A program made the position numbers and the translations under genes. A stretch of 64,000 nucleotides of DNA, taken from NCBI GenBank assembly GCA_038063455.1, contig JBBTVB010000003.1, positions 1,714 to 65,713 of the forward strand, read 5' to 3'. This document shows, piece after piece, positions 291-48,098 of this stretch. The number at the start of each line of letters is the position of its first letter. Position 1 is the first letter of the stretch. The notes beneath the pieces are model-generated. The model was given only the letters and a program-made list of their open reading frames with translations, was not told the origin of the DNA and made no database searches. The stretch comes from Patescibacteria group bacterium. Its GTDB lineage: Bacteria; Patescibacteriota; Patescibacteriia; PEXW01.

Positions 291-341
291 ATGTTCACGC
301 TTTCTCTAGCTAAAAGCCTTCCCTGCGCCTACACAGCTGCG

Positions 342-350
342 TGCTACAAT
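342..350 (+). promoter_or_regulatory. Extended -10 box TGcTACAAT, 6 nt before ATG 357 (leaderless-type)
   Basis: TG 342-343, TACAAT 345-350, ATG 357. No SD in between. Confidence 0.5.
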
Positions 351-356
351 CAGGCC

Positions 357-1643
357 ATGCGCTTGATTGCCGACCTCCACGTCCACTCGCGTTTTTCCCG
401 CGCCGTGTCCAAAGACATGACCCTGCCGGTAATGCACCGCTGGACCGACTACAAAGGCATTGGCCTGGTGGGTACGGGCGACTTTACCCACCCCACCTGG
501 TTTGCCGAGCTGCGCGACCAGCTGGTCCAGACGGACGGCGGCTTTCTGGAATTGAAAAAATTGTTGCGTGATCCGGCGACGCAAACGAATCCCCTGTTCG
601 TGCCCACCACGGAACTCTCGTGCATCTACAGCGAGCAGGATAAGACGCGGCGCATTCACATCGTGGTGGTCGCACCGAGCCTGCAAGCCGTGGACAAAAT
701 TAACAAGAACCTAGACAAAGAATTTAACCTCCGCAGCGACGGCCGGCCGATTCTTGGCTGCACGGCGCACGACCTGACGGCCCGCCTCCTCTCTATTGAG
801 CCGAATCTCCTGATAATTCCTGCGCACATCTGGACACCGTGGTTTGCCCTGTTCGGCTCCGCCTCCGGCTACGATAGCGCCGACGACTGCTTCCGCGAGC
901 TCATCAAGCACATCCCGGCCATTGAAACCGGCCTTTCCTCTAATCCGACGATGAACTGGCAGTGGAGTCACTTGGACCGCTTTAATATCGTGTCGTTCGG
1001 CGACGCCCACTCGCCGCGCAAGTTCGGGCGCGAGGGCACGGTGTTTGAACTGGAACGGCCAGGATATAAGGAGCTCTTGGCCGCGCTGTGGAACAATCCC
1101 GTCACGGGCACGGGCAAAAGCCCCAACCACATTGTGGAAACGCTGGAATTCTTCCCCGAAGAAGGCAAATACCATTTGGACGGCCACGCCAAGTGCAAGC
1201 AGCGCCTGACCCCGGCGCAGAGCAAGAAGGCCGGCGGCCTGTGCCCGGTATGCAAGAAGCCCCTGACTATTGGCGTGCTTAACCGTGTGGAAAAACTCGC
1301 CGACCGACCCGAGGGTTTTATTGACTCCAAGCGTCCCCCATTCCGCACGCTTATCCCTCTGGAAGAAACCATTGGCGAGGCTATGGATGTGGGGCCGGCC
1401 AGTAAAAAGGTGCAGGCAGTTTATATGACGTTGGTAAAAAAATTTGCCGGCGAGTTTAATGTGCTGCTGGAAACGCCGATCAAAGACATTGCTGCGGTAG
1501 CCGGGGAAACCGTGGCCGATGCCATCCAGCGCGTGCGTAACGGCAAAGTGCACATTGACGCTGGCTATGACGGCATCTTCGGCACCGTCAAAATCTTCTC
1601 CGCCGCCGACCGCAAGAAGCAGGAACAGGCCGCGCTGTTTTAA
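357..1643 (+). CDS. Endonuclease Q-like (EndoQ / TIGR00375-type) PHP-domain nuclease
   Basis: Track ORF 291-1643. MRLIADLHVHSRFSRAVSKDM, GTGDFTHP, GKYHLDGH, Zn-ribbon CPVCKKPLTIGV and C-terminal DAGYDGIFGTVKIF match my memory of archaeal EndoQ. Start moved to M23 (357) because a -10 box lies at 345-350; 291 remains possible. Confidence 0.8.
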   Translation: MRLIADLHVHSRFSRAVSKDMTLPVMHRWTDYKGIGLVGTGDFTHPTWFAELRDQLVQTDGGFLELKKLLRDPATQTNPLFVPTTELSCIYSEQDKTRRIHIVVVAPSLQAVDKINKNLDKEFNLRSDGRPILGCTAHDLTARLLSIEPNLLIIPAHIWTPWFALFGSASGYDSADDCFRELIKHIPAIETGLSSNPTMNWQWSHLDRFNIVSFGDAHSPRKFGREGTVFELERPGYKELLAALWNNPVTGTGKSPNHIVETLEFFPEEGKYHLDGHAKCKQRLTPAQSKKAGGLCPVCKKPLTIGVLNRVEKLADRPEGFIDSKRPPFRTLIPLEETIGEAMDVGPASKKVQAVYMTLVKKFAGEFNVLLETPIKDIAAVAGETVADAIQRVRNGKVHIDAGYDGIFGTVKIFSAADRKKQEQAALF

Positions 1644-1707: not shown

Positions 1708-1715
1708 ATATGTTA

Positions 1716-1721
1716 TACAAT
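1716..1721 (+). promoter_or_regulatory. -10 box TACAAT, 6 nt before ATG 1728 (leaderless-type)
   Basis: TACAAT 1716-1721, ACTGCC, ATG 1728. The box lies inside the track start at 1710. Confidence 0.45.
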
Positions 1722-1727
1722 ACTGCC

Positions 1728-2279
1728 ATGCTTACCTCGCTCCTCATCATCCTTTACGTCATCATTGGCCTTCTCGGCCTGTTACTCTTGGCCTTGCTCA
1801 TGAGCTTTGTAGTGCTGCTCATTATCCGCGTGCCATTCGTGCGCACGCCCAAACGCGCTACCCAGGCGCTCATTGACGCCAAGCTCATCCAACCAACCGA
1901 CCTGGTCTACGACCTGGGTGCAGGCGACGGCAAATTCTTGCATGACATTGTGAAAGCCACGGGCTGCCGCGGCGAAGGTTTTGAAATCTCCCCTTTTGTC
2001 TGGCTACTCGGCGAGCTGCGCGCGGCCACGTCCAAAAGGTGGAAAATGCACCTACAAAATTTCCTCAACGTGGACTTGAGCGAACCGACGATAATTTTTA
2101 ATTTCCTGGCCCCTGCCGGCATCCCCGGCCTGGCCCAAAAACTCAACACCGAAGTCAAAACTGGCCAAACGGTGATTAGTTACGGCTTCGAGCTCCCTGG
2201 CTGGACACCGATGCAAACCATAGACCCTCAACCCGAGCGGCCTACGGGGTCAAAATTTTACGTGTATAAGAAAGCGTAA
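1728..2279 (+). CDS. Class I SAM-dependent methyltransferase with N-terminal TM helix
   Basis: Track ORF 1710-2279. Hydrophobic N-terminus, SAM motif VYDLGAGDGKFL. Start 1728 preferred over 1710 because of the -10 box. Confidence 0.75.
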   Translation: MLTSLLIILYVIIGLLGLLLLALLMSFVVLLIIRVPFVRTPKRATQALIDAKLIQPTDLVYDLGAGDGKFLHDIVKATGCRGEGFEISPFVWLLGELRAATSKRWKMHLQNFLNVDLSEPTIIFNFLAPAGIPGLAQKLNTEVKTGQTVISYGFELPGWTPMQTIDPQPERPTGSKFYVYKKA

Positions 2280-3080: not shown

Positions 3081-3170
3081 GGAAGGGTGGCTGAGTGGTC
3101 GAAAGCGCCGCACTCGAAATGCGGTATACCCGTAAGGGTATCGAGGGTTCGAATCCTTCCCCTTCCGCCA
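3081..3170 (+). tRNA. tRNA-Ser (anticodon CGA), CCA encoded
   Basis: Acceptor GGAAGGG / CCCTTCC, anticodon stem CCGCA / TGCGG with loop CTCGAAA (anticodon CGA). Long variable arm TACCC-GTAA-GGGTA, T-loop GGTTCGAATCC, 3' GCCA. Confidence 0.95.
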
Positions 3171-3437
3171 TGCACCACTCGCTACGCTCGGATGCATGGC
3201 AAGCCAGCTCTTGGTGCATGCCCTGTACCCGAACGCAGTGAGTGGTTCAGGGCAGCTCGTTTCGCCTTTCGAGCTTCGCGTGACTCGCATTTGCGAATCC
3301 CGCTCCGCCCTCAAGGCGAAGCCTCACTTTACCCCACGCACGCGTGCTCACTGCGTTCCGCGCCACGCGCGTGGGGACCCCGTCGGGCGCAGGCGCAGTT
3401 CGGCGTGCTGGCCACTGAATTCCTGCTGGTGACGTAT
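3171..3437. other. GC-rich non-coding spacer with long-range inverted repeats
   Basis: No credible ORF; track ORFs here overlap the tRNA or each other. Perfect 12-bp inverted repeat GAACGCAGTGAG (3231-3242) / CTCACTGCGTTC (3347-3358). 8-bp CCCCACGC (3332-3339) / GCGTGGGG (3368-3375), plus several 5-6-bp local hairpins. Confidence 0.5.
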
Positions 3438-3438
3438 T

Positions 3439-3472
3439 AAAAAACTGGCTCAGGAATTTATTCCTGAGCCAG
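3439..3472 (-). terminator. Rho-independent terminator of the sigma-like gene
   Basis: 12-bp perfect stem CTGGCTCAGGAA (3445-3456) / TTCCTGAGCCAG (3461-3472), loop TTTA. A6 at 3439-3444 gives a U-run on the minus strand. Confidence 0.8.
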
Positions 3473-3486
3473 CGATAAAAACACAA

Positions 3487-4986
3487 TTACGCGGCAATAC
3501 GTAGCCGAGTAAGGGCTTTAACTTCAAGCTGCTGCACACGTTGACGGGTGACACTCATTTTGTCAGCAACTTGCTGCAAGGTACGGTACACACCAGCGTC
3601 GGACATGTCGAGACCGAAACGTAGGATCAGCACCTGCGAGAGACGCGGATCGCTTTGCTGCATCTTCTCGAGCTGCCCACGTCGTCTGGCCGAAAGGATC
3701 TTTCGGAAGGTACCGAGACGACAAATGGGAAACTTCTGGGGAAGAGCAGACACCTGTAGCGCACGGCTCAAGCGGGCGTGATTTTGAAGTTCGCGCTGAC
3801 GCATGGCCTTTTTACGTTCCTGCTTCTCATACGCTTTCACCTGCGAGTGAACTCTCTTGACGTATGCGTACACGCTAGGTGCGGGGTGAAAATCTCTAGC
3901 ACCATAGCGCAGGTACAAGAGCACGGCATTCACCTGAACAGAAACGTAGCTATTGCACCGTTCAGAAAACCCAAACTGCATGCCAACAGCTGACTGCGTT
4001 ATGAACTCCTCACCCTGCAGGCAGAAGTACCGCGCAGTCATCCGGGCACAATGGAGATTGTAGCGGAGCAATTTTTCGAACTGCTTGCGTCGCAAACCTT
4101 GTAACTGCAGGAGAAATGTCCGCTGCCCCGCATAGGCGCGTGAACGGTTCTCTCCTGCTGACCAGCAACTGTCGGGCTGCTCATAGCCGAAGACGATTGC
4201 CACGTCTCGTGCTGTGCACAGCGCACGATAGTGTCCACTGATGATGCGCTCGCTCCCTGGTGGAATCCGAACGATCTTCAGGTTAGGGGCTTTTCGAAGC
4301 ACGCGCTTGAGTGCCCACAAAAAAGGATGGCCGTCAAAGTGCACCATTGTGGTTTCCGAACTGAGCTGTTCAAAACCCCGATGGCCATGCGAATAGCTAA
4401 TACCTACTATCTGCTTGACGAAAATGTCTGGCAGCTCACCAATTCCGGGCACGTAGACGGGCCCTGCAGCTTCTTGATACGCCACCTTCGAATCCGCCAG
4501 TTCCTCGTGGAGCGTGCGACCATCTTCAAAGCGTTCAGCATCCAACGACCTGGGCAGACCGGCCATACGTACTGACTCCACGATCCGCTTAACAGACCGT
4601 TCGGTTACATCAAGGTATTCAGCGACTTCCTGTTCTGTTGGCTTCCTGTGAAGATTGCTAGTGAGCTCTGCTTCCGCCTTTCGAAACGACCGAACCCAGC
4701 GTGCCTGAGACTGAGAAAGAGCCCCCACTCGATCAGCTTCACTCTGAAGGATACCTCGAATGCAGACGCGAAGGTATGCGTCGAGGTTCAAAATGTTCAC
4801 CAACTCCTTTCCCTTGGCGTCGAGAATCTTTGCAATCTCGACCACGCAGGCATTGATGAGATCATCTGGATCGGCCAAACCATTGCATTGCTGCAACCAT
4901 GGTTGGCGCCTGAGGAAGGCCCTAACACACGAACGAATGAGCGGCAACTTTTCTTCCAGAATGCAATTGCGCCTGGCTATTGTCAT
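3487..4986 (-). CDS. Sigma-70 family protein with a ~270-aa insertion between region 3/4.1 and region 4.2
   Basis: Residues 1-167 look like sigma regions 2-3 plus the start of region 4 (PTEQEVAEYLDVTERSVKRIVE; RSLDAERFEDGRTLHEELADS). The region 4.2 HTH (VLILRFGLDMSDAGVYRTLQQVADKMSVTRQRVQQLEVKALTRLR) appears only in the last ~60 aa. SD GGGAGA lies 8 nt before the ATG. Confidence 0.7.
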   Translation of the reverse strand: MTIARRNCILEEKLPLIRSCVRAFLRRQPWLQQCNGLADPDDLINACVVEIAKILDAKGKELVNILNLDAYLRVCIRGILQSEADRVGALSQSQARWVRSFRKAEAELTSNLHRKPTEQEVAEYLDVTERSVKRIVESVRMAGLPRSLDAERFEDGRTLHEELADSKVAYQEAAGPVYVPGIGELPDIFVKQIVGISYSHGHRGFEQLSSETTMVHFDGHPFLWALKRVLRKAPNLKIVRIPPGSERIISGHYRALCTARDVAIVFGYEQPDSCWSAGENRSRAYAGQRTFLLQLQGLRRKQFEKLLRYNLHCARMTARYFCLQGEEFITQSAVGMQFGFSERCNSYVSVQVNAVLLYLRYGARDFHPAPSVYAYVKRVHSQVKAYEKQERKKAMRQRELQNHARLSRALQVSALPQKFPICRLGTFRKILSARRRGQLEKMQQSDPRLSQVLILRFGLDMSDAGVYRTLQQVADKMSVTRQRVQQLEVKALTRLRIAA

Positions 4987-5166
4987 AATCTACGTCTCCC
5001 AGATTTTCAATTTTTACGATTTTCATTTTCATAACAAACTACCACTAAAAACGCCGTTTGTCAAGCCCAAAGAAACAACTACGCTCTCTATACAAACAGC
5101 TCCTTCCCTAACCAACGAAAAGGCCTCGTCGTAACTTCCCGCTCATGACATACTAAAGACGAACGA

Positions 5167-5514
5167 ATGCCCAAACTCATCCTCAAACTCGAAGGCCTGG
5201 CCATACTCGTCACGGCCATATACATGTACCACCTAAGTGGCGCGAGCTGGGTACTTTTCGCCCTGCTTATTTTGGTACCGGACATTTCTATGATCGGCTA
5301 CCTTAAGGATACTAAACTAGGCGCAATTACCTACAACTTAATGCACAATTACGTCCTCGCCATTATCCTGCTTATGGCGGGGGTGGTTATGAAAAATGTC
5401 ACCCTCGTTTCCCTGGGTCTTATCCTGGCCGCACATATTGGCATGGATCGGTTCCTAGGATTTGGACTCAAATATCCAACCAATTTTAAAGACACACACT
5501 TACAGAAAGTGTAG
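5167..5514 (+). CDS. DUF4260-family small membrane protein
   Basis: 115 aa, 3-4 TM segments. LVPDISMIGYL and C-terminal MDRFLGFGLKYPTNFKDTHL match my memory of DUF4260. Confidence 0.7.
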   Translation: MPKLILKLEGLAILVTAIYMYHLSGASWVLFALLILVPDISMIGYLKDTKLGAITYNLMHNYVLAIILLMAGVVMKNVTLVSLGLILAAHIGMDRFLGFGLKYPTNFKDTHLQKV

Positions 5515-5744
5515 TGCCACCCTAGAACAACTGTAAAAATCGGTACTTATAAAGGCTCTGCCGAGGTGAATTATAGGGTATATAGAGGCCTGTCCAGACA
5601 TTGGACAGGTACCTGCTGATATGTACAGTATTTTTTAAAATTTGGACACATACGCATAGGCCCTAAATAATCCTACGACCAGTTGCCTTCTTAAAATACG
5701 TACGAATACAGCAACCCAGCAAAATACATAAACATTTTGGAGTG

Positions 5745-5753
5745 TGCTAGTCT
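5745..5753 (+). promoter_or_regulatory. Extended -10 TGcTAGTCT, 6 nt before ATG 5760 (leaderless-type)
   Basis: TG 5745-5746, TAGTCT 5748-5753, ATG 5760. Confidence 0.4.
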
Positions 5754-5759
5754 ACGCCC

Positions 5760-7481
5760 ATGACCCAAGCAACCGCCCTAGCAATTCTCCAAACCGGCGT
5801 GAATGTCTTTCTTACCGGTGAACCGGGCAGCGGCAAAACCCATACGGTAAACAGTTACGTGCGCTGGCTGCGCAGTCACGGCATACCACCCGCGATAACC
5901 GCCTCCACCGGCATTGCGGCCACCCACATTAGCGGGATGACTATCCATTCCTGGTGCGGCATTGGCATAAAAAAATCCCTTTCAACACACGACCTCAACG
6001 CCCTGGCGGCAAACGAACGCGTGGCCCGACGGGTTCGGAACACGAGCGTGCTGATTATTGACGAAGTGTCTATGCTCTCGGCACAGACGCTCGCCATGGC
6101 GGATGCGGTGTGCCGTAAAATCCGGCAGGATACTGCGCCTTTCGGCGGCCTGCAGGTTGTTGTGGTCGGTGACTTTTTCCAATTGCCGCCCGTGGTCCCC
6201 CAGGAAAACCGTGACAGTGCCCAACTCGGCTTTGGCGAAGACGCGGTGGACAGTGCGCCCTTCGCCTTCCGTTCCCCCGCGTGGGACTCCGCCCAGCCGG
6301 TGGTCTGCTATCTCACCGAACAGCACCGCCAGGAAGATGCCGAATTTCTTTCACTTCTTTCGGCTGTACGCTCGGGTACCGCCGATGAAGACACGCACAG
6401 TGCCCTGGCAGCGCGGCGCGCTGATGTAGAACGTACACCGCAAGATCTGCCTCGGCTCTACGCGCACAATGCCGACGTGGACCGCGTGAACGAAACACGC
6501 CTGGCCGCTATTCCTGGCATTGCAAAACACTATACGATGATTTCGCACGGCAAAGAAGGCTTGGTGGCTACGTTACAGCGCGGCTGCCTTTCGCCGGAAA
6601 CCCTCTCACTAAAAGTCGGTGCCCGCGTCATGTTTACCAAGAATAATCCTGACGGCAGTTTTGTAAATGGCACGGTGGGCGAAGTGCAAGGCTTTGGTGA
6701 TGAAGACCAACCGGTAGTACGAACCCTGCGCGGTCGGCGCATAGAAGTGGAGCCAATGGAATGGACGATTACTGACGGCACCCGCACGCTGGCACGCATT
6801 ACGCAGCTCCCCCTCCGGCTTGCCTGGGCAATAACTATTCACAAGAGCCAGGGCATGACCCTGGATGCAGCGGTTATGGACCTTTCGCAGGCCTTTGAGT
6901 ATGGCCAAGGCTACGTTGCGCTCTCGCGAGTGCGCTCGCTCACGGGGCTGCACCTGCTGGGCTGGAACGAGCGCTCACTGGAGGTGCATCCTGAAGTTAT
7001 TGCGCAGGATCAAAATTTTCAACAAAGCTCAATTACGGCGGAAACTACATGTGCCGCTAGGTCAAAAAAAGAACAGGCTGCGCTTGTCCACGCATTTATT
7101 GTAAGCTCCGGTGGCAAACCGGCAGGTGGGGTGGTGATGAGCACCCGGAAAAATACATCCCGCGGCTCAACCTACGATGTGACGCTCGAGCTGGTACACA
7201 GCGGCGCATCTATTCACAAAATTGCCAAAGCCCGTTCGCTCACCGAAGGGACAATTATCTCGCATATGCTCAAGCTCTTTACCGACGGCCGCCTGACCCG
7301 TGCCGAATTAGAACCGCTCATCTCCCCAGCGCTACAAAAGTCGTTACCAAAAATCCAGGCGGTATTTAAAACGCTTGACGTTGAGCACCTCTCACCAATC
7401 TTCGAAAAGTTGGGTGGCGCGTATTCCTATGATGATTTACGCATCGCCCGGGCACTGCTGGAAACAAGCACTCCTGAATAA
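5760..7481 (+). CDS. Pif1/RecD-like ATP-dependent DNA helicase with C-terminal HTH
   Basis: Walker A GEPGSGKTH, Walker B VLIIDEVSML, VVGDFFQLPPV, ITIHKSQG. The C-terminal ~90 aa resembles the helicase-associated HTH (HTH_40-like). Confidence 0.85.
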   Translation: MTQATALAILQTGVNVFLTGEPGSGKTHTVNSYVRWLRSHGIPPAITASTGIAATHISGMTIHSWCGIGIKKSLSTHDLNALAANERVARRVRNTSVLIIDEVSMLSAQTLAMADAVCRKIRQDTAPFGGLQVVVVGDFFQLPPVVPQENRDSAQLGFGEDAVDSAPFAFRSPAWDSAQPVVCYLTEQHRQEDAEFLSLLSAVRSGTADEDTHSALAARRADVERTPQDLPRLYAHNADVDRVNETRLAAIPGIAKHYTMISHGKEGLVATLQRGCLSPETLSLKVGARVMFTKNNPDGSFVNGTVGEVQGFGDEDQPVVRTLRGRRIEVEPMEWTITDGTRTLARITQLPLRLAWAITIHKSQGMTLDAAVMDLSQAFEYGQGYVALSRVRSLTGLHLLGWNERSLEVHPEVIAQDQNFQQSSITAETTCAARSKKEQAALVHAFIVSSGGKPAGGVVMSTRKNTSRGSTYDVTLELVHSGASIHKIAKARSLTEGTIISHMLKLFTDGRLTRAELEPLISPALQKSLPKIQAVFKTLDVEHLSPIFEKLGGAYSYDDLRIARALLETSTPE

Positions 7482-7503
7482 AAATAGTGCAGACTAATCC
7501 CCT

Positions 7504-8130
7504 ATGGCCATCACCGAATCCATCATCCACATTGCGACGACGTTTATTGAGACTGCCGGCTACCCGGGCATTGGGGTGCTCATGATTATGGAAAGCATGA
7601 TTCTGCCGGTGCCGAGCGAAGCGGTGATGCCGTTTGCTGGTTTCCTCATTTTCGACGGCACGCTTACCTGGGCGGGCGTGATTATTGTCAGCACCATTGG
7701 CAGCATTCTCGGCTCCCTGCTCTCGTACTGGATTGGCGCCAAGGGCGGCCGACCACTGGTGGAACGCTGGGGCAAGTACGTGCTGGTAAGCCACCATGAC
7801 TTGGATATTACGGACCGCTTCTTTGCGCGGCGCGGAAGTTGGGCGGTGCTTATCAGCCGCTTTATTCCGGTTATCCGGCATATCATTTCTATCCCTGCGG
7901 GGGTGGCAAAAATGCCGCTGAAAAAATTTCTGGTCATGACCATTCTCGGTGCCACCCTGTGGAACACCTTCTTAACCTGGGTGGGCTTTAAGCTGGGCGA
8001 GAACTGGGAGAATCTGCACAAGTACAGTGAAAAAATTGATATCGTTATCGTAGCGATCCTCATCCTGCTGGTGGCAGCCTTTGTCTATCGTCACTGGCGC
8101 ACGCGAGACCGCGGGGTGGCCACCGGCTGA
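7504..8130 (+). CDS. DedA/SNARE-associated family membrane protein
   Basis: GYPGIGVLMIMESMILPVPSEAVMPFAGFL and FIPVIRHIISIPAGVAKMPLKKF are typical DedA motifs. Confidence 0.85.
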   Translation: MAITESIIHIATTFIETAGYPGIGVLMIMESMILPVPSEAVMPFAGFLIFDGTLTWAGVIIVSTIGSILGSLLSYWIGAKGGRPLVERWGKYVLVSHHDLDITDRFFARRGSWAVLISRFIPVIRHIISIPAGVAKMPLKKFLVMTILGATLWNTFLTWVGFKLGENWENLHKYSEKIDIVIVAILILLVAAFVYRHWRTRDRGVATG

Positions 8131-9151: not shown

Positions 9152-9207
9152 GGATGGACTGGGCGTACCGAGTACATTCACGCCTTGCGACATTCGTTTA
9201 ATCGCCG

Positions 9208-9213
9208 TAGGAT
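9208..9213 (+). promoter_or_regulatory. -10 box TAGGAT, 6 nt before ATG 9220 (leaderless-type)
   Basis: TAGGAT 9208-9213, CAGCCT, ATG 9220. Confidence 0.4.
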
Positions 9214-9219
9214 CAGCCT

Positions 9220-9765
9220 ATGGGTAAAATAGGAGCGAACAATGCAACTTTCGGTTCTGGTTGTTTCTGGTGCACAGAAACAATTTTTTTGAGTCTCAAG
9301 GGCGTTACCAGTGTCATGCCGGGATATTCCGGCGGTAGAACCAAAAACCCCACCGACATGCAAGTGTACACGGGGAGAACCGGTCATGTTGAGGTTGCTA
9401 GGATTGAATTCGATCCAAGTATTATCACCTACGAACAACTAATCGAAGTGTTTTTTGGCTCGCATAACCCCACCACCCTCAACCGCCAAGGGAATGACGT
9501 GGGCGAGCAGTATCGATCCGTCATCTTTTTTCACGACGATGAGCAGAAGCAGGTTGCGGAAAAAGTAAAAGCAAAAATAGAGGCGGAAAAAACCTTTGAC
9601 GCCCCAATTGTGACGACCATTGAACCGCTGACGAGTTTCTACCCGGCCGAAGACTACCACCGCAACTACTACGCCAACAACCAAGACCAGCCCTATTGCC
9701 AGGCTGTGATTAGCCCCAAGCTGGCGAAGTTCCGGCAGCATTACAAAGCCCTACTCAAAGAATAA
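9220..9765 (+). CDS. msrA: Peptide-methionine (S)-S-oxide reductase
   Basis: GSGCFWCTE active site, GYSGG, GHVEVARIEFDP, QGNDVGEQYRS. Confidence 0.95.
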   Translation: MGKIGANNATFGSGCFWCTETIFLSLKGVTSVMPGYSGGRTKNPTDMQVYTGRTGHVEVARIEFDPSIITYEQLIEVFFGSHNPTTLNRQGNDVGEQYRSVIFFHDDEQKQVAEKVKAKIEAEKTFDAPIVTTIEPLTSFYPAEDYHRNYYANNQDQPYCQAVISPKLAKFRQHYKALLKE

Positions 9766-9771
9766 AGCCAC

Positions 9772-10185
9772 ATGGCCCGCCCAACAACGGCATTAGAAAA
9801 AGTCAGCGCGTCAGGAGTCAATGCGACGGCCGTCTTTGCGCTAACTACACCGGTTCTCCTCATGCAGGGCCCCAGCACATCCTGGCGAATACTAACAATT
9901 GGGCTCTTCTTTGTGTATACAATAGCCTGCCTACTGCTGCCTGAACGACGTGACCTAGGTATGTTCGTGGTTCGGTCAAAATATGCGCACGACTATCCTC
10001 TCTGGCAGCTAACCATATACAATCTGCTCTACACTGCCAGTTTTGCTACACTGTTCATACACCTGTGGTTCCCATTTGATGTCTTCCTCATCAACATCTT
10101 CATCATCCAACTACCAGTGGTCATATGGAAACAGACCACACTTCATGGCTATCTTGCTGGAAATATTCTCACCATAAAAAAATAG
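9772..10185 (+). CDS. Hypothetical membrane protein (137 aa)
   Basis: 4 hydrophobic segments. Starts 6 nt after the msrA stop. No family recognised. Confidence 0.55.
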   Translation: MARPTTALEKVSASGVNATAVFALTTPVLLMQGPSTSWRILTIGLFFVYTIACLLLPERRDLGMFVVRSKYAHDYPLWQLTIYNLLYTASFATLFIHLWFPFDVFLINIFIIQLPVVIWKQTTLHGYLAGNILTIKK

Positions 10186-10243
10186 AGGGGAGACCGCGCC
10201 GTACGAGCATGCCGAGATGTCTAGCATTTCTGCCCTGTTTTAA

Positions 10244-45363: not shown

Positions 45364-45391
45364 ATCTCGAGACCACTCTCGGGATTTTTTT
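45364..45391 (+). terminator. Rho-independent terminator
   Basis: ATCTCGAGA (45364-45372) / TCTCGGGAT (45377-45385) with one G-U, loop CCAC, T6 at 45386-45391 (overlaps the dnaN stop codon). Confidence 0.75.
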
Positions 45392-46499
45392 ATTGCCGAA
45401 TGGGCATGACCAAGTAGCGGAACATGGGCTGCAGCTTGTCTGGCGCTTTGGGCACGAGCAGGCCCGGCCCTTTTTCGTCGTTGAGCCGCAGCTCCACCTC
45501 GTCGCTACCCATAGCTTGCAGGCCATCCAATAAGAAGCGCCAGTTAAATACAATGCGCACCTCACCCCCGGTCACGCTCGCCGGAAAATGTGCCTCACCA
45601 GTACCAACCTGGGCATTAGCGGCGTTCACGGTCACTGCATCTGCGCTCGCCGCAGCGCTCAACGTCACGTCGTTGACGCCCGAGCGGCAGAACAAACTCA
45701 CCTGCCGCACCGTCTTGGCAAAGCTCTCAACCCCGGCGGTTACCTGGGTGGTAAAGGCCACTGGAATAATTTGCTCGTAGTCGGGGAACTGGCCTTCGAT
45801 GAGGCGTGAAACAATGTCGAGCTCGTCCGTGGTAAAACCCACCTGATTCTCACCCACCACCACACCCACCTCGCCACTCTCGGGCAGAATGCGGATAAGC
45901 TCCAGCAAGCTGCGGCTCGGCACAATTACCCGCTGCTCGTCTTTTGCTGTGGCGAGGGGCACTTGGGCCTCAGCCAAGCGGTAACTATCTGTGGCGGCAA
46001 ACGTAAGATGTTGGTTGTGGAGGTGGAGCAGCACGCCGCTGATTTCTGGGCGCGACTCGTCCGTAGCCACCGCAAACACCGTTTTACTCAAAGCGGCCTT
46101 TAGTGTTGCTACGGGCAGGCTAAAACGCGTGCCGTCTTGGACCTTCGGGATAACTGGAAAATCCTCTGCCGCCAAGCCTTTCAGGCTCGTCCTTGCGCCG
46201 CCGCCGGCTACCCGCAGCTCATTATTCTCCAGCTCAACAGTCACATTTCCAGTGGGCAGCAAGCTAGCGTAGTCCAGCAGCACCCGCGCCTGCACCGTAA
46301 AGCTACCAGTGGTATCAACCTTACCCCGAACTTTAGCGGTAATCCCAAGCTCTAAATTCGTCGAGATGAGGGTGATACCATCCTTCTCGGCGACCATAAG
46401 AATATTTTTCAAAATCGGCAGCGTGCTCGTGCGGCCAGTGATGTGACTCACACTCTGCAACCCTCGAACGAAGTTTTCTTGCGTGCAAGTGAATTTCAT
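45390..46499 (-). CDS. dnaN: DNA polymerase III beta sliding clamp
   Basis: MKFTCTQENFVRGLQSVSHITGRTSTLPILKNILM. Three-domain length. Immediately downstream of dnaA. Confidence 0.95.
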   Translation of the reverse strand: MKFTCTQENFVRGLQSVSHITGRTSTLPILKNILMVAEKDGITLISTNLELGITAKVRGKVDTTGSFTVQARVLLDYASLLPTGNVTVELENNELRVAGGGARTSLKGLAAEDFPVIPKVQDGTRFSLPVATLKAALSKTVFAVATDESRPEISGVLLHLHNQHLTFAATDSYRLAEAQVPLATAKDEQRVIVPSRSLLELIRILPESGEVGVVVGENQVGFTTDELDIVSRLIEGQFPDYEQIIPVAFTTQVTAGVESFAKTVRQVSLFCRSGVNDVTLSAAASADAVTVNAANAQVGTGEAHFPASVTGGEVRIVFNWRFLLDGLQAMGSDEVELRLNDEKGPGLLVPKAPDKLQPMFRYLVMPIRQ

Positions 46500-46727: not shown

Positions 46728-48098
46728 TCACATGTAGAGCCGCTGCTTGATGAGGGTGAGGTCTTGCTGGAGTTTAAGATCTTCTTTAAGTTGCCTCGTC
46801 ATTTTTTCGATTGCGTGCATAGCGGTGGAGTGGTCCCGGCCACCGAGCTCTTCGCCGATGGTTGGGAACGACGCTTGAATCTCTTCCCGCATGAGGTACA
46901 TAACTATTTGCCGCGGTTTTACCAGCTCTTGGCGGCGGCTCTGGCCCAGCACCTCAGAGACTTTTACGTCGTAGTACTGGCACACCGCCCCAATAATTTG
47001 CTTCGGCGTGACCGCGTGTTGCCGTTTGGTGTGCGTGGCTTGTGTAATGGAAGAGAGAATGTCTTTAATAGAGTCTACGGTGGGCGCGGTGTGGCTTAGG
47101 TTGTGTACCGCGACAATCCGGTTGAGCGCGCCTTCCAGCTCCCGGACGCTATTCTGGATGACGTTGGCAATGTATACCAGCGCGTCGTCACTCATGTGGA
47201 GTTTACGCTCGCTGCATTTGGCCCGCAGGATAGCAATGCGCGTTTCCAGGTCGGGTTCCTGCACGTCGGCGATCATCCCCCACTCAAAACGAGTAAGCAG
47301 CCGAGCTTCCAGCGCCGCAATGGCCTTGGGCGGCCGATCGGACGACAAGATGATTTGCTTATTTTCTTGGTGGAGCGTGTTGAAGGTGTGGAAGAACTCT
47401 TCTTGCGTTCCTTCTTTGCCAGTGAGGAACTGCACGTCGTCCACGAGCAGCACGTCGACCGACCGCCAGCGTTCGCGGAATTTTGCCATTGTCCCTTTGT
47501 AAATAGCCTGTACGAATTCGTTGGTGAATTGCTCGCAACTCACGTACAGGACACGAGCTTTTGGGCTGTGCGCCAGAATGCCGTGGCCAATGGCCTGCAT
47601 CAGGTGGGTCTTGCCCAAGCCCGCACCGCCGTAGATGAAGAGTGGATTGTAGATGTCGCCCGGCTTCTCGGCGCAAGCTTTGGCCGCGGCCTGGGCCAGC
47701 TCGTTGCCCTTACCAACGATAAAGGTGCCAAAGGTGTAGCGCGGGTTGAGGCCGCCCTTGCCCCCCATGGCCTTCAGCAAAGGGGCGGCTTCCTCGACCA
47801 CCTCGGGTGGGGCACTGGTTACCGCATCCACCGAGGCTTTTGGGCTTTCTACTCGGTAGGCAACGCTTGCTATCTCTTTCTCGGTTAGGTGTTGCAGGGC
47901 GTTGAGGATGTGAGAGTGGTATTTGGTCTCCAGCCAGGACTTTACGAAGTCCGTGGGCACGCCAATAACCGCCTGGTCGCCCTCAATGGTGCTGATGAAG
48001 GTGTTTTTGAACCAGGTCGTGAAGTTGGCTTTGCTCAAATGCAGCTCTAATTCGCCTAGTGTGGCTTCCCAGAGCTTATCATTTGGTAATTTCGGCAT
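46728..48098 (-). CDS. dnaA: Chromosomal replication initiator DnaA
   Basis: YTFGTFIVGKGNELA, NPLFIYGGAGLGKTHL, LLVDDVQFL, C-terminal DNA-binding domain HSTAMHAIEK. Confidence 0.97.
   Translation of the reverse strand: MPKLPNDKLWEATLGELELHLSKANFTTWFKNTFISTIEGDQAVIGVPTDFVKSWLETKYHSHILNALQHLTEKEIASVAYRVESPKASVDAVTSAPPEVVEEAAPLLKAMGGKGGLNPRYTFGTFIVGKGNELAQAAAKACAEKPGDIYNPLFIYGGAGLGKTHLMQAIGHGILAHSPKARVLYVSCEQFTNEFVQAIYKGTMAKFRERWRSVDVLLVDDVQFLTGKEGTQEEFFHTFNTLHQENKQIILSSDRPPKAIAALEARLLTRFEWGMIADVQEPDLETRIAILRAKCSERKLHMSDDALVYIANVIQNSVRELEGALNRIVAVHNLSHTAPTVDSIKDILSSITQATHTKRQHAVTPKQIIGAVCQYYDVKVSEVLGQSRRQELVKPRQIVMYLMREEIQASFPTIGEELGGRDHSTAMHAIEKMTRQLKEDLKLQQDLTLIKQRLYM

Follow-up and report, generated by a model that had tools for sequence, protein, structure and literature searches.

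A sigma factor-like protein of a Patescibacteria group bacterium in which a divergent sigma region 2 and a sigma region 3 precede a module that is common as a separate protein and ends in sigma region 4

Several departures from the usual layout of sigma factors have been described. Group 1 sigma factors carry a non-conserved region between regions 1.2 and 2.1, ECF41/ECF42-type sigma factors have regulatory C-terminal extensions, split sigma systems consist of two proteins (T4 gp55 with gp33 and B. subtilis SigO with RsoA), and in WhiA a sigma4-like helix-turn-helix (HTH) is grafted onto other domains. Here we describe a 499-residue protein encoded by a complete open reading frame (ORF) at positions 3487-4986, minus strand, of a 64,000-nucleotide stretch of contig JBBTVB010000003.1 (assembly GCA_038063455.1; the whole stretch is hereafter the window). 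The protein (P0001 in our set) is named at NCBI as a "sigma factor-like helix-turn-helix DNA-binding protein" from a metagenome-assembled genome (MAG), Patescibacteria group bacterium. An earlier interpretation based on the nucleotide sequence and its translations (the sequence-only reading) had described it as a sigma factor interrupted by a large insert. This extra stretch and the sigma4 that follows it turn out to be one pre-existing module, and the protein, judging from its sequence, is best filed as a sigma70-family-derived chimera outside any named group. It falls under the curated cut-offs of the FliA/WhiG, SigB/F/G, RpoD and MzaA models.

None of the split sigmas, WhiA or the ECF41/42-type factors is a sequence relative of this protein; they are functional analogies. 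It shares with extended sigma factors (the ECF41/42 type and two proteins described below, L014 and L020) a sigma core covalently joined to extra C-terminal domains, but those proteins keep their own region 4 and carry the extension after it, whereas here only the sigma4 of the extension remains. The split sigmas are comparable by analogy only, in that sigma2- and sigma4-type functions can sit on separate polypeptides; the stand-alone proteins of the module family described below would take the sigma4 side, and the fusions would act as a "Rosetta stone." The module has no sequence relationship to gp33 or RsoA. Among group 3 sigma factors (SigF/SigB/SigG, FliA/WhiG), the N-terminal 170 residues align through sigma2, sigma3 and region 3.2, but in our protein region 4 comes after about 250 residues of foreign module and is primary-like. 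MzaA, from the MZA anti-phage system, is likewise a large sigma-like protein with region 4 at its extreme C-terminus; however, the 499-residue protein scores 42.6 bits against a cut-off of 800 (NF041931), with the last ~55 residues alone matching, and is not a member. We also rejected it as a defense-system component: the PADLOC model for MzaA (PDLC02203) gave 23.2 bits, from region 4 only.

Residues ~186-499 form one autonomous module of four parts: an alpha/beta domain, a degenerate sigma4-like HTH, a 40-residue helix, and a canonical sigma4. All four are encoded on the minus strand. The alpha/beta domain (residues ~186-276; 4159-4431) has the order beta-alpha-beta-alpha-beta-alpha-alpha-beta and is related to DUF1699_N. 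The helical domain (residues ~277-366; 3889-4158) carries the motif ARYFCLxGE...Q..G..FG......VS..VNAVL.YL and is followed by a single long alpha-helix (residues 370-409; 3760-3879) that joins it to the canonical sigma4 (residues ~421-496; 3499-3726). The AlphaFold model of residues 172-499, made with an alignment of 125 sequences, has a predicted local distance difference test (pLDDT) score of 92.4 and a predicted template modeling (pTM) score of 0.79, and because of these values it indicates a single compact unit. The long helix is helix 199-238 in this model, in a block with pLDDT 87-97; the helical domain has five helices and the C-terminal sigma4 four.

That the helical domain is a cryptic, degenerate version of sigma4 is seen with hhalign, which aligned it with the family's own sigma4 over 60 columns (probability 86%, E 5.2e-6); the hidden Markov model of the module also matches the sigma4 of the same proteins as secondary matches. 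A DnaA_C-like identity for this helical half was rejected (hhalign probability 3.7%). For the alpha/beta domain, the Pfam model DUF1699 (PF08004), for this part of which newer Pfam uses the name DUF1699_N (PF28505), gives the 499-residue protein 18.4 bits (E 0.0018; profile positions 12-72 of 130), below the cut-off of 33.4. The homology does hold at the family level, where 45 of 125 members match (best E 1.7e-9), and PF28505 is precomputed for several of them. Foldseek found no fold match for this domain in PDB or BFVD, only weak matches of 60-84 columns to leucine-rich repeat (LRR)-like viral proteins. When the whole module was compared with PDB and BFVD, sigma4 alone was convincingly matched, and sigma alignments of ~200 columns were poor (root-mean-square deviation 14-21 Å, TM < 0.2); a profile of the module core retrieved nothing below E 0.79 from PDB sequences. 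The sequence-only reading had found this middle stretch unrecognizable and free of sigma features. It was right in that nothing characterized matches, and it missed the degenerate HTH. Its judgment that no intein is present holds: there are no intein or Hint families among the Pfam matches to the protein, and the stretch between the sigma parts is a conserved non-intein module.

The module is a family in its own right. When 1.84 billion representative proteins, clustered at 50% identity, were scanned with a profile made from residues 186-383, at least 285 clusters were found, 154 of them at E < 1e-30. Nearly all are stand-alone proteins of 300-365 residues with the domain at ~50-250 (e.g., P0003-P0009, P0041, and P0047), and Sigma70_r4 was detected in 103 of the 125 members scanned. 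The 499-residue protein belongs to this family, matching its profile at E 8.5e-76 over positions 5-194 and having the C-terminal Sigma70_r4 as well. Its residues 186-499 correspond to a full-length, well-conserved member: among homologs of the whole protein, those of ~300-365 residues cover only residues ~186-499, and the 692-residue P0002 covers all of it. The stand-alone proteins differ at the N-terminus, where 79 of 157 retrieved proteins have a CxH...CxxC motif and our protein has sigma2-sigma3. Its module keeps 46 of the 56 columns conserved in at least 70% of sequences (family median, 48), so that it is evidently under purifying selection and not decaying.

These observations bear on whether the protein is simply an ordinary sigma factor with a lineage-specific insertion of ~270 residues between regions 3 and 4, which leaves its own region 4 tethered. 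The linear order sigma2-sigma3-3.2-extra-sigma4 would fit, and Pfam and the models confirm this order. However, the "insert" and the C-terminal sigma4 occur together in proteins of their own that make up a single family, P0002 as the closest relative has an additional, separate internal region 4, and a group-3-like N-terminus is paired with a group-1-like sigma4; we therefore regard this explanation as very improbable. The module is common as a stand-alone protein, and the 499-residue layout stands alone among the proteins retrieved. The stretch is also not the non-conserved region known from sigma70, since it lies between regions 3.2 and 4.1. Its length is corrected from ~270 to about 250 residues because the canonical sigma4 starts near residue 421.

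The C-terminal sigma4 is strongly supported. Pfam Sigma70_r4 covers residues 446-496 with 44.1 bits (cut-off, 24.1), B. subtilis SigA (7ckq_F) is matched at 6.3e-8, and Foldseek pairs this domain with domain 4 of S. aureus SigA (4g6d and 4g8x; TMt 0.71-0.72, 42-44% identity). In hhalign, sigma4 aligns with a primary sigma at a probability of 98.6%. Thus, the region 4 HTH previously placed in the last ~60 residues is confirmed as a strong match, but the canonical domain is larger and includes region 4.1. It does not directly follow region 3.2, as canonical spacing would have it: residues 173-420 lie between. Because the best matches of the N-terminus are group 3 sigmas (SigF and FliA) and those of sigma4 are primary sigmas, the protein is marked as a chimera.

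The N-terminal part is sigma-like in profile searches. Region 3 with the region 3.2 linker (residues ~92-172, including RSLDAERFEDG...; 4471-4713, minus strand) is detected by Pfam Sigma70_r3 at residues 102-172 (37.6 bits; cut-off, 25.3). Region 2 (residues ~8-90; 4717-4965, minus strand) is divergent and group-3-like, with four helices; Pfam does not detect it in the protein itself, and its assignment comes from TIGR02479 and from a profile comparison with SigF. The profile was built on the N-termini of the three closest proteins. Its SigF match (1l0o_C) has an E-value of 1.4e-8 and spans profile positions 7-189, and FliA (1rp3_A) and SigA are matched as well, from region 2.1 through 3.2. 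The FliA/WhiG model TIGR02479 aligns with residues 35-157 (E 4.4e-8), scoring 33.1 bits against a curated cut-off of 189.6, and the SigB/F/G model TIGR02980 gives 27 bits against 234. In the full-length model, helices span residues 2-26, 40-62, and 68-88 of the region 2 part. Region 1.1 is not present. The assignment of residues 1-167 to regions 2 and 3 in the sequence-only reading is supported for region 3 and, less clearly, for the divergent region 2, with one exception: the motif RSLDAERFEDGRTLHEELADS, taken as the start of region 4, is region 3.2, since it falls within the stretch that Sigma70_r3 covers and is paired with region 3.2 in the alignments to SigA and SigF. Residues 141-183 have pLDDT < 50 in the full-length model, as would fit a flexible linker. 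The sigma2-sigma3 part has 43 invariant columns in an alignment of the three closest fused proteins (A5), and it is 36% identical between the 499-residue protein and P0038. A homolog search with the N-terminal 171 residues by themselves retrieved no protein, the query included, which probably reflects the limited sensitivity of the word index. A metagenome scan with the N-terminal alignment found no relatives; the same scan with the module alignment found only five short loci, all of the stand-alone type.

The closest relatives are longer, ~700 residues: P0002 (692 residues) and P0038 (700 residues). They belong to the same fused clade, since the four N-terminally extended proteins group together in 170 of 200 bootstraps of a neighbor-joining tree of the module region, and P0002 and P0038 are ~40% identical to the 499-residue protein in the N-terminal part and again in the module. 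They differ by ~200 extra residues, which hold a DnaA domain-IV-like HTH in both and an internal sigma4 in P0002. In P0002, Pfam detects region 2 (26.1 bits, clearing the Sigma70_r2 cut-off of 24), region 3, an internal region 4 (194-243), and one more HTH (333-364); residues 44-243 align with primary sigma regions 2.2 to 4.2 at E 1.4e-12. In P0038, Pfam finds region 3 and the C-terminal region 4, both weakly, and its own internal region 4 was not detected; from the alignment, it would nevertheless be a complete sigma factor. The middle domain of P0002 and P0038, aligned together, resembles DnaA domain IV (hhalign 89.5%, E 2e-6). Aligned with P0002, P0038, and the 592-residue P0103 (A4), the 499-residue protein matches both flanks and lacks the middle ~200 residues. 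An independent sigma2 fusion at the N-terminus of P0103 was considered and is not supported, with no PDB match below E 1 and no Pfam sigma match.

A DnaA domain IV is also found on a bona fide sigma factor. In a Saccharibacteria MAG (CAYOER010000009.1, L014), the gene at 5521-7860 (minus strand) encodes a 779-residue rpoD-like sigma (region 2 at 1.4e-19, regions 3 and 4) whose C-terminal part is a bona fide DnaA domain-IV HTH (Bac_DnaA_C, residues 677-744, 2.8e-15). It is divergent from the adjoining stand-alone module gene, which lies between this sigma-DnaA_C gene and an XPB/SNF2-like helicase with DUF4379 repeats. The architecture of the 499-residue protein is best explained by fusion of a sigma gene and a module gene, after which the region 4 that the sigma originally had was lost. 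First, a sigma(-DnaA_C) gene would have been fused to a module gene, a stage that the ~700-residue relatives would represent; the lineage of the 499-residue protein would then have lost ~200 residues, namely, its own sigma4 and the DnaA_C-like HTH. This is the simplest history because the halves of the long form exist separately, as the L014 sigma-DnaA_C protein and as stand-alone modules; the direction of the loss we infer.

One could argue that such an unusual ORF is two genes joined by misassembly or a sequencing frameshift, and the layout is indeed unique among the family proteins retrieved. On the other hand, the reading frame is continuous, both halves are conserved, and homologous fusions are present in three other samples. 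In addition, an independent Logan assembly of run ERR3858126 encodes an identical protein on a contig with 100% DNA identity to positions 3141-7533 of the window, and the ORF is therefore not an assembler-specific artifact; we consider an artifact of the ORF hardly credible. The gene also has the expression signals noted earlier: a Shine-Dalgarno sequence, GGGAG, lies 9 nucleotides 5' of the ATG (4996-5000 in plus-strand coordinates, minus strand), and an intrinsic terminator with a 13-bp stem (7 GC pairs), a 4-nucleotide loop, and a T-run directly follows the stop codon (3444-3473, minus strand).

What could such a protein do? With modest confidence, we propose that it most likely serves in transcription initiation, as an alternative sigma or another initiation factor that uses a borrowed module to read the upstream promoter. 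RNA polymerase binding and promoter recognition are what we infer from its domains, and on the polymerase the sigma4 of the module could plausibly serve as a -35 reader held by a tether. Sigma2-sigma3 would bind the polymerase core and take care of the -10 region, and the 3.2 linker (residues 141-183) would thread the RNA exit channel. The module would then emerge at the flap side of this channel, which is the only position that could sterically accommodate a large addition ahead of region 4.1, and supply upstream promoter recognition. Promoter reading may proceed via the canonical sigma4 and possibly also the degenerate HTH, which the long helix would hold apart; the presence of this second HTH and of a rigid helix suggests that an extended or bipartite upstream element is read. 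In the -35-contacting stretch, the protein has TRQRVQQ, compared with TRERxRQ in the family consensus and in primary sigmas. This variant suggests an altered -35 specificity, with most of the primary-sigma recognition helix kept.

Several observations weigh against this proposal. The evidence for region 2 is weak: the 499-residue protein is not matched by Pfam Sigma70_r2, and by eye the region 2.3 tryptophan pair (W433/W434 in E. coli sigma70) is absent. Two residues differ at the -35-contacting positions just described. The high pTM of the module model suggests that sigma4 is packed on the rest of the module and not free. The 499-residue layout is a single case among the 157 family proteins retrieved. 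Finally, most family members have no sigma2, and for this reason the native job of the module need not be part of a sigma factor.

A possible, although less likely, alternative is that the protein, like the stand-alone family, is a DNA-binding regulator or a sigma decoy and not an initiation factor. The module would be a multi-HTH transcription factor, with sigma2-sigma3 as a mere tether to RNA polymerase or a vestige. The protein would compete with the housekeeping sigma for the beta-flap or for -35-like sites and in this way repress transcription or redirect it. In addition to the degenerate region 2 and the compactness of the module, this fits the near-universal lack of sigma2 and sigma3 in the family, a family consensus that retains the primary-sigma TRERxRQ and would suit competition at host promoters, partner domains that are all DNA-binding HTHs (sigma4, degenerate sigma4, and DnaA_C), and phage-like contexts of the kind expected for host-takeover factors. 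A vestigial sigma2-sigma3, however, sits poorly with the conservation of this part in the fused proteins (the invariant columns and the identity to P0038 given above) and with the fact that it is still recognizable against SigF and FliA.

The distribution of the family is relevant here. All nine matches among the contigs of GTDB genomes, one genome per species, were in MAGs; six had named Patescibacteria lineages (Parcubacteria, Kaiserbacteria, Saccharibacteria, or "Patescibacteria group"), and three were named merely "bacterium." Some family members are on phage-like contigs with long one-directional arrays of small unknown ORFs, and genes near the module on such contigs include ERF, SSB, a UvrD-type helicase, a methyltransferase, DUF5131, and a Tad2-like gene. 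No module homologs were found in GenBank phages by tblastn or in IMG/VR by a pattern scan, and PHROGs gave a match to region 4 alone; the phage link thus rests solely on the gene content of metagenomic contigs. Other members are in ordinary chromosomal settings, beside GroEL and pilus genes or beside pyrH and tsf, and in another MAG the module gene has an XPB/SNF2-like helicase on both sides. Next to stand-alone module genes, no partner with sigma2 alone was found.

It is conceivable, but unlikely, that Patescibacteria and their phages have in the module family a new class of RNA polymerase-directed sigma4 subunits, of which the 499-residue protein is a natural covalent version. Stand-alone members would dock on the beta-flap, replacing or joining host sigma region 4, and a bipartite upstream element would be read by two sigma4-type HTHs with the rigid 40-residue helix between them; the 499-residue protein would be a working sigma whose -35 reader was swapped for this tandem-HTH device. 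If this were true, the recurrent fusions to DnaA domain IV would allow experiments on a connection between transcription initiation and DnaA-box DNA in these reduced genomes.

Such fusions are found in several forms. P0088, P0097, and P0111 have an extra C-terminal Bac_DnaA_C after sigma4 (E 1e-17 to 1e-19), and therefore DnaA domain IV can precede or follow the module, depending on the protein. In a Uhrbacteria MAG (JACPJN010000005.1; L020, 3826-12698, and L021), genes for RNase III, a 763-residue sigma with a ~440-residue unannotated C-terminal extension, the related protein P0010 (DnaA_C, linker, and sigma4), and two DEAD/ResIII/SNF2 helicases are found together. The P0010 gene is 110 nucleotides downstream of the sigma gene on the same strand, and this row is present in 14 contigs. 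At a third locus (L010), directly 3' of a stand-alone module gene, a 348-residue protein (9165-10211, plus strand) combines an N-terminal Sigma70_r4 (2.1e-14) with HARE-HTH (1.3e-18), and a TrwB/TraG-like coupling protein is encoded two genes further downstream; this locus may be a conjugative element.

Bac_DnaA_C in P0088, P0097, P0111, P0010, and the long relatives, together with the replication and recombination genes (SSB, ERF, and UvrD) of the phage-like loci, raises the question of whether the family binds DnaA-box-like DNA and regulates the initiation of chromosomal or phage replication. We think that this is improbable. The 499-residue protein has lost the DnaA_C-like domain, and its helical domain is not DnaA_C-like; its gene is ~42 kb from dnaA-dnaN; and the presence of DnaA_C on a bona fide sigma (L014) shows that in these bacteria this domain travels with transcription proteins. 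The window itself is chromosomal, with dnaA and dnaN at 45.4-48.1 kb (dnaN at 45390-46499 and dnaA at 46728-48098, both on the minus strand). An Rfam match to AsdA, the antisense RNA of dnaA mRNA, lies antisense to dnaA at 47553-47633 on the plus strand (57.7 bits; gathering score, 52), and it may reflect mere conservation of the dnaA coding sequence.

The sequence-only reading placed the gene in an accessory-looking stretch beside a tRNA gene. The tRNA-Ser(cga) is there (3081-3170, plus strand), but an integrated island flanked by it was rejected: a search for att-like repeats of the tRNA-Ser 3' end and for an integrase around the 499-residue gene found neither, there is no compositional shift (GC content 0.536 in the gene versus 0.543 in the window), and the adjoining 175-residue ORF tested for the same purpose has no phage or family match. 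The neighbors of the 499-residue gene are genes for a DUF4260 membrane protein and for a 573-residue PIF1-family helicase with HTH_40 at its C-terminus (5760-7481, plus strand), which is weakly similar to RecD-like defense-associated helicases in PADLOC and also adjoins the 499-residue gene in the independent assembly. Between the tRNA-Ser gene, within which the Logan contig ends (at 3141), and the terminator of the 499-residue gene lies a 273-nucleotide non-coding stretch (3171-3443) with a GC content of 0.63, compared with 0.54 in the window. It folds into several long hairpins (minimum free energy -120.5 kcal/mol, z = -3.27), has no Rfam match, and is present in a single copy within the window. 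Further away, an ORF at 291-1643 (plus strand) encodes a 450-residue TIGR00375-family protein (E 4e-49, under the curated cut-off), and an ORF at 1710-2279 (plus strand) encodes a membrane-anchored methyltransferase-like protein weakly matching an archaeal protein-lysine N-methyltransferase; neither has a Pfam match.

Full-text literature searches on DUF1699, on Patescibacteria sigma factors, and on sigma factors with DnaA in the candidate phyla radiation (CPR) gave no account of the module family and none of sigma-DnaA_C fusions in these bacteria, and the mentions of DUF1699 appear, judged from titles, to be misprints of the FAM83 domain DUF1669. The Patescibacteria (CPR) have small genomes with few recognizable regulators, and transcription control in these bacteria and their phages is largely unexplored. 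This locus exposes a sizeable, uncharacterized family built around sigma region 4 and tied to sigma factors, DnaA-type HTHs, and SNF2/XPB-like helicases via fusion, neighborhood, and shared domains. If the 499-residue protein works as a sigma factor, its -35-reading domain would be swappable, at the boundary of regions 3.2 and 4.1, for a larger module with two HTHs, and the known architectural range of sigma70-family factors would widen; if it does not, nature would have provided in it a decoy or regulator derived from a sigma factor. In both cases, the family offers a concrete and testable way into transcription in CPR bacteria and their phages, and the value of the finding lies less in the single 499-residue protein than in the module family and its links.

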